Shown here one piece after another: positions 1 to 3,000 of a DNA stretch of 8,449 nt (positions are counted from its first letter, which is position 1; every line of letters starts with the position of its first letter). The stretch comes from a virus (taxonomy: Duplodnaviria; Heunggongvirae; Uroviricota; Caudoviricetes): positions 1-8,449 of IMG/VR virus record IMGVR_UViG_2529293069_000019; one strand, given 5' to 3'. A program made the position numbers.

Positions 1-3000
1 AAATGCTGGTTGGTTCACGACGGATATCCCAGGACATCAGCACCCGTGATGAGGGCGGAGACGGGAAAGTGGTGGTTATCGGGCGGGGATGAAAATAAAA
101 AAATCCCGCAGAGTTAGCGGAGCTGCGGGAGAGAACGATGAAGATTAACGTTATGGAGTTATTTTTCAGGCATCAAAAAAGTAATGCAGCGTCATTATTG
201 CGGCTACAGGCAATTGCCGGAAATGTGAAGAGTTTCAGAAATTTTATTCCGTCATGACACAGGCACCCTCCGGGGTGCCTGTTGTTTTCTGGCATAAACA
301 GATTCAGACATCAGACAGGAGAGGGGGACAGAGTGGGTAAAGGGGGCGGCAAGGCGCACACGCCGGTAGAGGCAAAGGACAATCTTAAGTCCACGCAGAT
401 GATGAGCGTGATTGACGCCATTGGTGAAGGGCCGATTGAAGGTCCGGTGAAGGGGCTGCAGAGTATCCTGGTGAACAAAACCCCGCTGACGGACACGGAC
501 GGTAATCCTGTGATACATGGTGTGACAGCGGTCTGGCACGCCGGGGAGCAGGAGCAGACACCACCTGAAGGCTTTGAGTCTTCCGGAGCTGAAACCGCAC
601 TGGGCGTGGAAGTGACGAAGGCAAAGCCGGTGACGCGCACCATTACATCCGCGAACATTGACCGCCTGCGGGTCACCTTCGGGGTGCAGTCACTGTTGGA
701 GACCACCTCAAAGGGCGACCGTAATCCCTCTTCTGTCCGACTGCTGATTCAGTTGCAGCGTAACGGTAACTGGGTGACGGAAAAGGATGTCACCATTAAC
801 GGCAAGACCACCTCACAGTACCTGGCGTCGGTGATTCTGGATAATCTGCCTCCCCGCCCCTTTAACATCCGGATGGTCAGGGAGACGGCGGACAGCACCA
901 CGGACCAGCTGCAGAATAAGACGCTGTGGTCGTCATACACCGAAATCATCGATGTGAAACAGTGCTACCCGAACACGGCGATTGTGGGGCTGCAGGTGGA
1001 TGCGGAGCAGTTTGGTGGCCAGCAGATGACGGTGAACTACCATATCCGCGGTCGCATCATTCAGGTACCGTCAAACTATGACCCGGAAAAACGCACTTAC
1101 AGCGGTATCTGGGACGGCAGCCTGAAACCGGCATACAGCAATAACCCGGCCTGGTGCCTGTGGGACATGCTGACCCACCCGCGCTACGGAATGGGAAAAC
1201 GTCTGGGGGCGGCGGATGTGGACAAGTGGGCGCTGTATGCCATCGGGCAGTACTGCGACCAGACGGTCCCGGATGGTTTCGGGGGCACAGAGCCGCGGAT
1301 GACCTTTAATGCGAACCTGTCACAACAGCGTAAGGCGTGGGACGTTCTCAGTGATTTCTGCTCGGCGATGCGCTGTATGCCGGTATGGAACGGGCAGACG
1401 CTGACGTTTGTGCAGGACCGTCCGTCAGATGTGGTGTGGCCCTACACAAACAGTGATGTGGTGGCTGACAATGAAGGTGTGGGATTCCGCTACAGTTTCA
1501 GCGCCCTGAAGGACCGTCATACTGCGGTGGAGGTCAGTTACGTCGACCCGCATAACGGCTGGCAGACCTCCACGGAACTGGTGGAAGACCCGGAAGCCAT
1601 ACTGCGCTACGGACGCAACCTGCTGAAGATGGATGCGTTCGGCTGCACCAGTCGCGGTCAGGCCCACCGTGCCGGGCTGTGGGTGATAAAGACCGGACTG
1701 CTGGAAACGCAGACGGTGGATTTCACGCTCGGGTCACAGGGGCTGCGTCACACACCCGGTGACATTATTGAAATCTGTGATAACGACTATGCCGGGACCA
1801 TGACCGGCGGACGTGTCCTGTCCATCGATGCCGCCAGCCGCACCCTGACACTGGACCGTGAGGTGACCCTGCCGGAGACAGGTGCCGCCACGGTGAACCT
1901 GATTAACGGCAGCGGTAAGCCGGTGAGCGTGGACATCACTGCACACCCCGCGCCGGACCGGATACAGGTCAGCACCCTGCCTGATGGTGTGGAGACATAC
2001 GGTGTATGGGGACTCTCCCTGCCGTCACTGCGTCGTCGCCTGTTCCGCTGTGTCTCCATCCGGGAAAACACGGACGGCACCTTTGCCATCACGGCGGTGC
2101 AGCACGTACCGGAAAAGGAAGCCATCGTGGATAACGAGGCCTGCTTTGAGCCGCAGTCAGGCACCCTGAACAGCGTTATTCCACCGGCAGTGCAGCACCT
2201 CACGGTGGAGGTGAGCGCGGCTGACGGCCAGTATCTGGCACAGGCGAAATGGGACACGCCGCGGGTGGTGAAGGGGGTGCGCTTCAGTCTGCGACTGACC
2301 AGCGGAAGCGGAGAAGGCAGCCGTCTGGTGACCACCGCCATCACTGCGGATACAGAGCATCGTTCCAGTGGTCTGCCGCTCGGGGAATACACCCTGACAG
2401 TCAGGGCAATTAACAGTTATGGCCAGCAGGGCGAACCGGCCACCACCACCTTCCGGATTAACGCGCCAGCAAAACCCGCCACCATTGAGCTGACACCGGG
2501 CTATTTTCAGATAACAGCGGTCCCGCGTCTTGCGGTGTATGACCCGACGGTACAGTTTGAGTTCTGGTTTTCGGAGACAAAAATCGCAGATACATCTCAG
2601 GTGGAAACCTCTGCCCGTTATCTGGGGACCGGCAGTCAGTGGAGTGTATCCGGCCCGCACATTAAGCCCGGGAAGGATTTCTGGTTTTACGTGCGCAGCG
2701 TCAACCTGGTGGGGAAATCTGCTTTTGTGGAAGCCAGTGGCCGGGCCAGCAATGATGCAGAAGGGTATCTGGGGCTGTTTCGGGAAAAAATAGGAAAACT
2801 GCATCTGGCTCAGGGGCTGTGGGAGCTGATAGACAACAGCCAGCTTGCGGATGAGATGGCGGAGATGAAGACCTCCATCACCGAAACCCGCAATGAAATC
2901 ACACAGACGGTCAGTAAAACGCTGGAGGACCAGAGCGCCACCATACAGCAGATACAGCGCGTGCAGAAGGACACAAATGATGACCTTGCTGCACTTTACA

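Follow-up and report, generated by a model that had tools for sequence, protein, structure and literature searches.

A minus-strand small RNA gene between tail genes I and J of a lambdoid prophage, identical to EcOnc22/23/24 and related to PasB

Tail gene I ends with a TGA at positions 90-92 of the window (the whole 8449-bp stretch of prophage DNA that was analysed), and gene J begins with a GTG at position 333 (MGKGGGKAHTP...), which leaves an I-J spacer of 240 bp (93-332). The segment that the initial annotation had seen between the two genes is thus borne out, but its statement that I and J are essentially contiguous in lambda was inaccurate: the lambda spacer is 60 bp long, not zero. Gene J is a pseudogene in the window, although the spacer preceding it is 100% conserved. 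The features of the locus are given in Table 1.

Table 1. Features in and next to the I-J spacer, in window coordinates
Feature	Position	Strand	Remarks
sRNA gene (EcOnc22/23/24, PasB family)	97..187	-	Spacer identity, Hfq-CRAC peaks, CLASH reads, position of PasB
sRNA intrinsic terminator	97..129	-	Stem CCCGCAG/CUGCGGG (129-123 with 111-105), 11-nt loop, A + U7 (104-97)
UUAAUCUUCA (UYRAUCUUYR across variants)	139..148	-	Best-conserved segment of the sRNA body, a little 5' of the terminator; likely seed
AAAAAUAACUCC	155..166	-	A-rich (ARN-like) run, then AAYUCC motif; conserved columns, putative function
Internal U6 run	175..180	-	U5-U9 in all variants; candidate Hfq or processing site
-10-like hexamer AATAAT	194..199	-	TATAAT in most other variants; -35 poor in the window copy
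CRP-like box TGTGA-N6-TCAGA	224..239		Invariant in 36/36 distinct promoter-bearing left-module variants
39-codon ORF	138..257	+	ATG, GGGAGAG 5 nt upstream; complement of sRNA body and promoter region; not a gene
Terminator-like hairpin	259..290	+	10-bp stem, UCCG loop, then UGUUUUCU; module separate from the sRNA
Gene J (host-specificity tail tip protein)	333..3807	+	Frameshifted: ORFs 282..3110 and 3025..3807

The initial annotation had proposed folding the two hairpins that it saw in the spacer, and both fold far better than shuffled sequence. The one that it had described by its minus-strand T-tract, at 105-129 and followed on that strand by AUUUUUUUAUUU, was called terminator-like at -13.2 kcal/mol (z = -4.3 relative to shuffles), and is the terminator of the small RNA (sRNA) described below. 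It has a stem of 7-8 bp and then AU7, compared with the U-run of at least six taken as the threshold for an sRNA terminator; among 20 diverse variants, neither the stem nor the U-run changes, and the loop varies in both sequence and length. The second, on the plus strand at 259-282, was also called terminator-like (-27 kcal/mol for 250-295, z = -5.6). It is likewise real and conserved: over 10 distinct variants it is 98% paired, one pair changes from C-G to U-A in a compensatory manner, and the U-run does not vary. How J could be transcribed past such a structure had been raised as a puzzle, but it is not one, because the 60-bp lambda spacer has a hairpin and U-run in the equivalent position, and late transcription in lambdoid phages is Q-antiterminated.

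The spacer agrees at 240/240 bases with those between I and J in prophages Sp11, Sp14, and Sp15 of E. coli O157:H7 Sakai, even though the prophage in the window is a different mosaic from the Sakai ones; the best complete genome matches the whole length of the window at only 94% identity. Three Hfq-bound sRNAs, EcOnc22, EcOnc23, and EcOnc24, have been described from Sp15, Sp14, and Sp11, respectively (Tree et al. 2014, PMC4104026; Waters et al. 2017, PMC5286369). In Table S2 of Tree et al. (PMC4104026), their Hfq-CRAC peaks lie in these three spacers on the strand opposite to I and J, and a transcript of ~85 nt, destabilised in delta-hfq, is recorded from Northern blots. After coordinate correction, the peaks fall at window positions 176->114 on the minus strand. 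The correction amounts to a shift of +135 to +137 from NC_002695.1 to NC_002695.2, anchored on the sequence of CLASH reads and cross-checked with AgvB; an earlier placement of the Hfq peak at 310->250, which had applied the 2014 coordinates uncorrected to NC_002695.2, was dropped because AgvB and the CLASH reads revealed the version shift. The sequence GCCTGAAAAATAACTCCATAACGTTAATCTTCATCGTTCTCTCCCGCAGC, found in RNase E-CLASH hybrids assigned to EcOnc22/23/24, is verbatim the minus strand of the window from 171 to 122. The window element is therefore EcOnc22/23/24, because the spacer is 100% identical and both peaks and reads map inside the predicted sRNA on the same strand, with no difference at the sequence level. 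What the published EcOnc22/23/24 entries hold is peak coordinates only, without ends, promoter, or targets.

A second published RNA belongs with these three. PasB (pathogenicity-associated sRNA B) of EPEC E2348/69 (Pearl Mizrahi et al. 2021, PMC8550237; also Zhu et al. 2026 preprint) is a Northern-verified RNA of 83 nt whose level changes by a log2 value of -6.8 in delta-hfq (PMC8550237). We located it in prophage PP6 at 1466343->1466261 on the minus strand, between the stop of I at 1466255 and the start of J at 1466496; the PP6 spacer is also 240 bp, and PasB is antisense to the tail genes in the same layout as in the window. The two elements align colinearly from promoter to terminator, with intermediate variants bridging both types, and they share the terminator stem, the U7, the internal U-run, AAYUCC, AUCUUCA (within a UYRAUCUUCA motif), the CRP-like box, and the position of the promoter. 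Identity between the two spacers is ~70% (171/248 aligned columns) and only moderate over the body of the RNA, which reads GCCUGAAAAAUAACUCCAUAACGUUAAUC in the window and GCCCGAGUAACAAAAACAACUCCUUCACAUUGAUC in PasB; the window copy also has the weaker promoter. On this alignment, the window sRNA is a diverged homologue of PasB. No EHEC homologue is entered in the PasB table (PMC8550237), and the comparison thus joins two names from the literature, EcOnc22-24 and PasB, that were left unconnected there.

The 3' end of the sRNA was placed after the U7 run, at ~97, and the 3' end of PasB likewise maps to the end of its U7 run. For the 5' end there are two options, between which we are uncertain: a start at ~187, some 7 nt past the -10-like hexamer, would yield 91 nt, whereas one at ~171-172, matching both the RNA-seq 5' end of PasB and the starts of the CLASH reads, would yield 75-76 nt. 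Neither gives exactly the ~85 nt of the published Northern blots, which lies within the predicted range of 75-91 nt. Note that the PasB 5' end and the CLASH reads start just 3' of the internal U-run. What 40 distinct left modules have in common is the terminator stem with its U-run, the internal U-run, AAYUCC, UYRAUCUUYR, and TGTGA-N6-TCAGA; the remainder is variable. The body is predicted to be unstructured, and RNAalifold on 20 variants found the invariant terminator stem only, with no covariation supporting structure in the body; no Rfam family covers the spacer element. Conservation of UYRAUCUUYR and AAYUCC amid variable, probably single-stranded sequence suggests that these motifs act as the seed, and a PasB seed has been proposed at the place of UYRAUCUUYR (Zhu et al. 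2026 preprint). The AAAAAUAACUCC segment is a candidate Hfq distal-face or anti-Shine-Dalgarno segment.

A consensus scan called no promoter in the window copy, which has AATAAT as its -10 and a poor -35; for the identical sequence in Sakai, expression has been published. Most variants carry a correctly placed TTCACA-16-TATAAT (11/12 consensus matches), and the promoter was called in a sister variant; from these, a promoter is inferred for the window sRNA. The CRP-like box is the sole match to TGTGA-N6-TCAGA in the window, with 0.06 expected. Its centre lies 44.5 bp upstream of 187 and 60.5 bp upstream of 171, and its spacing is thus not canonical with respect to the CRP centres of -41.5 (class II) and -61.5 (class I). 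Control by CRP would fit, because the box is invariant and the level of PasB is higher in LB than in glucose-rich DMEM, but we take a CRP role for this putative box as a lead only.

Comparing the I-J junction across prophages, as the initial annotation had advised, revealed that the sRNA site directly after the stop codon of I is fixed in 78/78 non-lambda loci examined. The inserted module is ~165 bp including the terminator; lambda is without it. In a class with a 342-bp spacer, the plus-strand hairpin is replaced by an unrelated hairpin module and the sRNA module is retained; hairpin and sRNA are separate modules, because the hairpin alone is exchanged. In other prophages, sodC occupies the same junction, beside the sRNA element in some relatives, and in this class the promoter of the sRNA is replaced without loss of I or J. 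The I-J junction of EHEC and EPEC lambdoid prophages is thus a cargo site that holds the sRNA alone, the sRNA with a different right-hand module, or sodC.

The best explanation of the whole, to which we assign a probability of about 0.9, is that the spacer contains an autonomous sRNA gene on the minus strand, which is EcOnc22/23/24 and a diverged member of the PasB family, and which most likely acts in trans. The gene is inserted straight after the stop codon of I and runs antisense to the tail operon. Its transcript most likely begins past the -10 hexamer at 199-194 and ends at the terminator (129-105 plus U7), with a length of 75-91 nt. The RNA is made in the lysogen, when the late operon is silent, and is bound by Hfq, on which its stability depends according to the published data for the identical Sakai sequence; it would probably base-pair with host and virulence mRNAs through AAYUCC and UYRAUCUUYR in its unstructured body. 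By RIL-seq, PasB is the 3' partner in chimeras with ler, perB, bfpB, bfpI, ftsZ, and galE. EcOnc22 has no listed targets in a 2021 review; in the CLASH data, EcOnc22/23 are linked to yjbJ with a perfect 10-nt match, the hybrids in EHEC amounting to 1-2 reads each. The predicted EcOnc22/23-yjbJ duplex has -34.3 kcal/mol, versus -21.8 +/- 3.8 kcal/mol for shuffles. The ler fragment bound by PasB contains two AUGAAGA sites, to which the UCUUCAU of the window variant is complementary. With the RIL-seq fragments of ler and ftsZ, neither PasB nor the window variant gave duplex energies better than those of shuffles, the method being too permissive for long inputs. The window variant differs from PasB over much of its body and so may not share the PasB targets (ler, perB, bfp, ftsZ).

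The function of the spacer might instead lie on its other strand. The initial annotation had noticed a 39-codon ORF with a good Shine-Dalgarno sequence, and both the frame and its GGGAGAG, 5 nt ahead of the ATG, exist; both start codon and ribosome-binding site are covered by the antisense RNA, an arrangement known from hok/sok-type loci, so that one could imagine a moron for a 39-residue protein, possibly repressed by the RNA in the style of a type I toxin-antitoxin system. A coding role did not hold up, however. An ATG ORF of at least 39 codons arises in 24% of shuffles of the spacer, and among 44 distinct homologous spacers the start is lost (to ACG or ACA) in 22, an early stop occurs in 16, and the frame is kept, as an ATG plus 35 or more codons, in three; in the other three, the homologous start could not be located. 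The frame is disrupted in 38/44 while the hairpins are conserved, the pattern that had been said in advance to indicate an RNA element and not a protein. Furthermore, the conserved columns track RNA features, not codons, and the peptide lacks hydrophobic character and matches nothing in Pfam. Membership of the type I toxin-antitoxin systems was rejected on these grounds; the ORF is a chance by-product and not a gene, and a peptide reading of the locus is extremely improbable. More can be said for the plus-strand terminator or attenuator at 259-290 as the functional element, gating or insulating J, with the rest being neutral filler or a recombination scar. Its hairpin is strong and conserved, and lambda has an analogue, but it leaves the minus-strand transcript, the binding of Hfq, the minus-strand terminator, and the promoter unexplained, and it is exchanged for another hairpin in the 342-bp class, which retains the sRNA module. 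As an account of the whole spacer we consider it possible but doubtful; as a statement about the plus strand, it complements the sRNA explanation rather than competing with it.

Given an antisense sRNA, its target could also lie in cis. The entire RNA falls within the transcribed I-J spacer, on the opposite strand and perfectly complementary to it, its site after I does not move in any of the non-lambda loci, and it associates with RNase E; during lytic growth it might therefore pair with the late polycistronic mRNA and, by RNase III/E cleavage or transcriptional interference, tune J relative to the upstream tail genes. The sRNA is, however, detected in uninduced lysogens, where late mRNA is scarce, and its partners in chimeras are mRNAs of unlinked host and virulence genes and not the sense RNA of I-J. 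Lambda assembles tails without it, the window keeps a perfect spacer next to a broken J, and the sodC class changes the sRNA promoter with I and J retained. We thus judge an action in cis to be rather unlikely. Distinctly unlikely, too, is a combination of both roles, in which an sRNA gated by nutrients through cAMP-CRP would, in lysogens, tune mRNAs for virulence and stress via UCUUCAU and AAYUCC (ler/per/bfp in EPEC, yjbJ and others in EHEC), but would turn to the I-J spacer of the late mRNA once the prophage is induced, pairing with it and so adjusting the supply of the J tail-tip protein.

The identification of the element as a trans-acting candidate of the EcOnc22-24/PasB family accounts for every feature that had been flagged in the spacer. 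The RNA itself is already known, through Hfq crosslinking in 2014 and the validation of its EPEC homologue in 2021, and the result has little weight as a discovery. It is nevertheless a reasonable target for functional work on riboregulation in EHEC, because ~15% of complete E. coli genomes contain matches to the spacer, the median being three places per genome.

Other prophage sRNAs resemble it in kind. AgvB, AsxR, and HnrS (EcOnc10-12) are also short Hfq-binding sRNAs carried as cargo by lambdoid prophages; a genome has several copies of them, and the lysogen expresses them, but they lie at other loci and have unrelated sequences. AgvB and AsxR sit at the PR' moron site, and cmscan of the window with their models (RF02702, RF02703) gave no match at gathering score or at E <= 10, whereas the control, AgvB of Sakai Sp10, was found; HnrS is located elsewhere in the late region. 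All three were thus ruled out as the RNA of the spacer. Phage morons were reportedly described by Juhala and colleagues in 2000 as extra DNA between conserved phage genes, with a promoter and terminator of its own. The spacer element is such extra DNA, absent from lambda and lying between two conserved late genes, with its own terminator and with expression in the lysogen while the late operon is silent; its own promoter is putative, being clear and called in sister variants only. The suggestion in the initial annotation of a miniature moron or small-RNA locus was thus correct as to kind, but the RNA comes from the minus strand and is antisense to the tail operon. In behaviour, the element is an RNA "moron", whose cargo, unlike that of the usual kind, is non-coding and points the opposite way to the late operon.

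The window is the tail end of an EHEC-type lambdoid prophage, and the element between its tail genes I and J is a known prophage sRNA gene (the EcOnc22-24 and PasB family) together with a conserved plus-strand hairpin. The I-J gap of ~240 bp and the two hairpins reported by the initial annotation were all borne out, both hairpins being called as terminator-like (four such sites were called in 700 bp vs. 0.9 expected); in lambda, where that annotation had I and J essentially contiguous, the spacer is 60 bp, not zero. O157:H7 PV15-279 has an identical spacer, and its RefSeq annotation passes from "tail assembly protein" through 240 unannotated bases to "gpJ, frameshifted", labeled a frameshifted pseudogene. 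J is also frameshifted in the window (overlapping plus-strand ORFs 282..3110 and 3025..3807, break near 3025-3110); the sRNA spacer is perfectly conserved despite the frameshifted J downstream. A variable-number 7-nt repeat, TCAGACA, lies in the J 5' leader immediately upstream of the ribosome-binding site, with two tandem copies in the window (304-317, plus strand) and, in the same alignment block, four in locus L054 and zero in several other variants.

Features of the I-J spacer (window positions) and conserved elements of the aligned left modules (the minus-strand sRNA unit next to I)
Feature	Position	Strand	Description
I stop	90-92		TGA; end of I reading frame
Terminator-like hairpin	105-129	-	-13.2 kcal/mol, z = -4.3; followed by AUUUUUUUAUUU
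ORF	138-257	+	39 codons
Box	224-239		TGTGA-N6-TCAGA
Terminator-like hairpin	250-295	+	-27 kcal/mol, z = -5.6; followed by UGUUUUCU
J start	333		GTG; protein begins MGKGGGKAHTPVEAKDNLKST...
Element 1		-	invariant block AAUAAAAnUUCUGAAnnUCUUCACAUUUU
Element 2		-	TTCACA-16-TATAAT, in most variants
Element 3		-	GCGUUAnnG
Element 4		-	U5-U9 run
Element 5		-	variable stretch
Element 6		-	A-rich run ending AAYUCC
Element 7		-	variable 6-8 nt
Element 8		-	UYRAUCUUYR
Element 9		-	short variable linker
Element 10		-	invariant stem CCCGCAG/CUGCGGG; loop varies in length and sequence
Element 11		-	AU6-7

Three homologous Hfq-CRAC peaks were described in strain Sakai, EcOnc22 (Sp15), EcOnc23 (Sp14), and EcOnc24 (Sp11); EcOnc22 gave a Northern band of ~85 nt and was destabilised in delta-hfq (Tree et al. 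2014, PMC4104026, Table S2). Each of the three falls within a 240-bp I-J spacer of NC_002695.2, antisense to I and J, and the Sp15, Sp14, and Sp11 spacers are identical to that of the window (240/240). The published coordinates refer to NC_002695.1 and need a version offset: AgvB, located with its Rfam model, has version.2 coordinates that exceed the tabulated ones by ~137-146 bp. RNase E-CLASH hybrid reads assigned to EcOnc22/23/24 contain GCCTGAAAAATAACTCCATAACGTTAATCTTCATCGTTCTCTCCCGCAGC (Waters et al. 2017, PMC5286369, supplementary file 9), which is the window minus strand from 171 to 122; the shift is therefore +135..137, with which the Hfq peaks cover 176 to 114 (minus strand). Unshifted EcOnc22 coordinates would misplace the peak within the spacer and are ruled out by the version offset. 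Tree 2014 and Waters 2017 coordinates lie ~135-146 bp below current RefSeq at about 1.94-2.92 Mb in Sakai, the offset being roughly nil at 1.18 Mb. In one Waters table the locus appears as 'asxR2', apparently because 'EcOnc2' was globally replaced within 'EcOnc22'. EcOnc22, with EcOnc23 and EcOnc24 as synonyms, is entered in a 2021 review as an Hfq-dependent sRNA of Stx1 phage, supported by Northern and CRAC data and with targets given as unknown. Rfam STnc100 matches (L125 2746-2936, Sp4; L129 328-520, Sp10; L130 938-1147, Sp15) lie at PR' moron sites of the Sakai prophages and coincide with the positive-strand partner of 'convergent sRNA' pairs (e.g., EcOnc05 in Sp4).

PasB of EPEC E2348/69 (prophage PP6, NC_011601 minus strand 1466343 to 1466261, 83 nt, Northern probe AATCCCGCAGTGATCGCGGAGCT) is tabulated with no EHEC homologue noted (PMC8550237 Table S6). 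Its interval is inside a 240-bp spacer, between the I stop at 1466255 and the J start at 1466496, and is antisense to both. Colinear alignment of that spacer to the one in the window gives 171/248 identical columns, the two having in common the box, promoter position, U-run, AAYUCC, AUCUUCA, terminator, and U7; the PasB spacer corresponds to one of the variant types in the left-module alignment. No paper in the literature examined appears to equate EcOnc22-24 with PasB, EcOnc22 being mentioned there by the 2021 review only; linking them is a cross-reference and not new biology. The PasB level falls 2^6.8-fold in delta-hfq, is reportedly elevated under the non-activating condition, unlike other Pas sRNAs, and in RIL-seq PasB is the 3' partner in chimeras with bfpB, bfpI, ftsZ, galE, ler, perB, and rplX.

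Read on the minus strand, 40 distinct left modules align with their elements in the order tabulated above, which is the layout of an Hfq-type sRNA. Its body is predicted to be unstructured; RNAalifold returned only the terminator stem, which is invariant and so gives no covariation evidence either way. Element 2 of locus L097 scored 11/12 in the promoter scan; the scan called no promoter in the window copy, where the -10 is AATAAT (199-194) and the -35 is poor. The box is invariant among variants, has a single match in the window vs. 0.06 expected, and resembles a CRP site, a candidate to be taken as a lead: measured from the two candidate starts, its center lies 44.5 or 60.5 bp upstream, neither of which is a canonical distance (41.5 or 61.5). 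The RNA ends after the U7 run, at about 97, because the PasB coordinates, RIL-seq fragments, and a CLASH chimera ending ...CUGCGGGAUUUUUUU place it there. The predicted promoter puts the 5' start near 187 (91 nt), whereas PasB RNA-seq and all CLASH fragments begin just past the U-run, equivalent to ~171-172 (75-76 nt); the discrepancy could reflect processing or RNase trimming in library preparation, and the Northern size of ~85 nt favors neither end.

The 39-codon ORF noted in the initial annotation exists, but an ATG ORF of at least 39 codons occurs in ~24% of spacer shuffles. Of 44 distinct homologous spacers, 22 have ACG or ACA in place of the start codon, 16 run into a stop before codon 35, and only three retain ATG and at least 35 codons (the start could not be located in another three). 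The junction comparison suggested in the initial annotation found the frame disrupted among relatives, the outcome it had named as refuting a protein, and the 39-residue peptide had no Pfam match. A protein-coding ORF was rejected on these grounds; it is an accident of the strand complementary to the sRNA.

Using the first 200 residues of J as query, 122 loci were fetched; I and J could both be placed in the window and in 103 of these loci. Spacer lengths form four classes, 60, 234-260 (including the window), 336-344, and 848-851 bp, the first being that of lambda, with many sequences that are contaminating lambda DNA in unrelated assemblies. The left module, common to all three long classes, begins directly after the I stop codon with the minus-strand terminator, followed by ~100 more bases. 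The right module is the plus-strand hairpin in the 240 class, an unrelated ~180-bp segment with a different hairpin in the 342 class, and minus-strand sodC (Pfam Sod_Cu, E = 3.9e-32) with its own terminator in the 851 class, where the insertion replaces everything upstream of the left-module body, promoter included. Since right modules differ while the left is shared, the I-J junction is a cargo site and the left module a separate unit. The suggestion of a miniature moron or small-RNA locus stands as to a cargo unit absent from lambda that encodes a published sRNA, but the RNA runs antisense to the tail operon.

The sodC-bearing spacers are in L082 (650-1500), L005, L045, L068, L096, L101, L102, L112, and L117; the breakpoint falls about at the expected sRNA -10 position, and the sRNA body and terminator persist downstream without their own promoter. 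L052 and L097 (about 1330-1500), of the 336-344-bp class, keep the sRNA module with the plus-strand hairpin swapped out for a hairpin between an A-run and a U-run (GAAAGAAAACCCCGGTATCTGCTGATACCGGGGTTTCTCTTT), possibly bidirectional. Spacer matches occur in 802/5426 complete E. coli genomes (median three places per genome, maximum nine), and 432 records are at least 99% identical over the 240 bp. The spacer is far more conserved than the mosaic DNA around it: the best complete E. coli genome matches the full-length window at only ~94% identity, with nleG7 and Lom among the features annotated under such matches. About two dozen assemblies (L007-L031), titled Bacillota, Streptomyces-group, Chromatium, Shewanella, Pseudomonas, and others, carry a lambda-type I-J region with the 60-bp spacer, which looks like lambda DNA contamination. 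Some EHEC-type spacers also occur in records titled as 'Streptomyces flavalbus' and as a 'Clostridiales' MAG.

According to the cited data, the sRNA of identical sequence is made in uninduced lysogens, is Hfq-bound and requires Hfq for stability, and was recovered on RNase E in hybrids with other RNAs. It is most likely a trans-acting regulator that base-pairs via its open body, the candidate seeds being the conserved motifs AAYUCC and UYRAUCUUYR; the PasB seed is likewise placed just upstream of the terminator (Zhu et al. 2026). PasB has exact complementarity to the ler fragment through UCCUUCACA, and through UCUUCAUU twice, and the window variant retains the UCUUCAU match, also twice. With yjbJ, its CLASH partner, the window variant has a 10-nt (CCAUAACGUU) and a 7-nt match, and the duplex energy is -34.3 kcal/mol vs. 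-21.8 +/- 3.8 for shuffles (3/1000 as good); the same measure was uninformative for ler and ftsZ. These short exact complementarities weakly support trans base-pairing.

The plus-strand hairpin is a module separate from the sRNA. Over 10 distinct variants, 98% of cells pair, with C-G replaced by U-A at one pair (three sequences) and G-U arising at two pairs, and the U-run that follows is invariant. Most simply, it is an intrinsic terminator or an RNA-end-stabilising hairpin. In lambda, Q-modified polymerase reads through terminators in late transcription; by analogy, such polymerase would pass this hairpin to reach J, and the hairpin would halt stray transcription in the lysogen. The 60-bp lambda spacer itself has a comparable hairpin and U-run (GAAACCGCCUGCGGGCGGUUUUGU).
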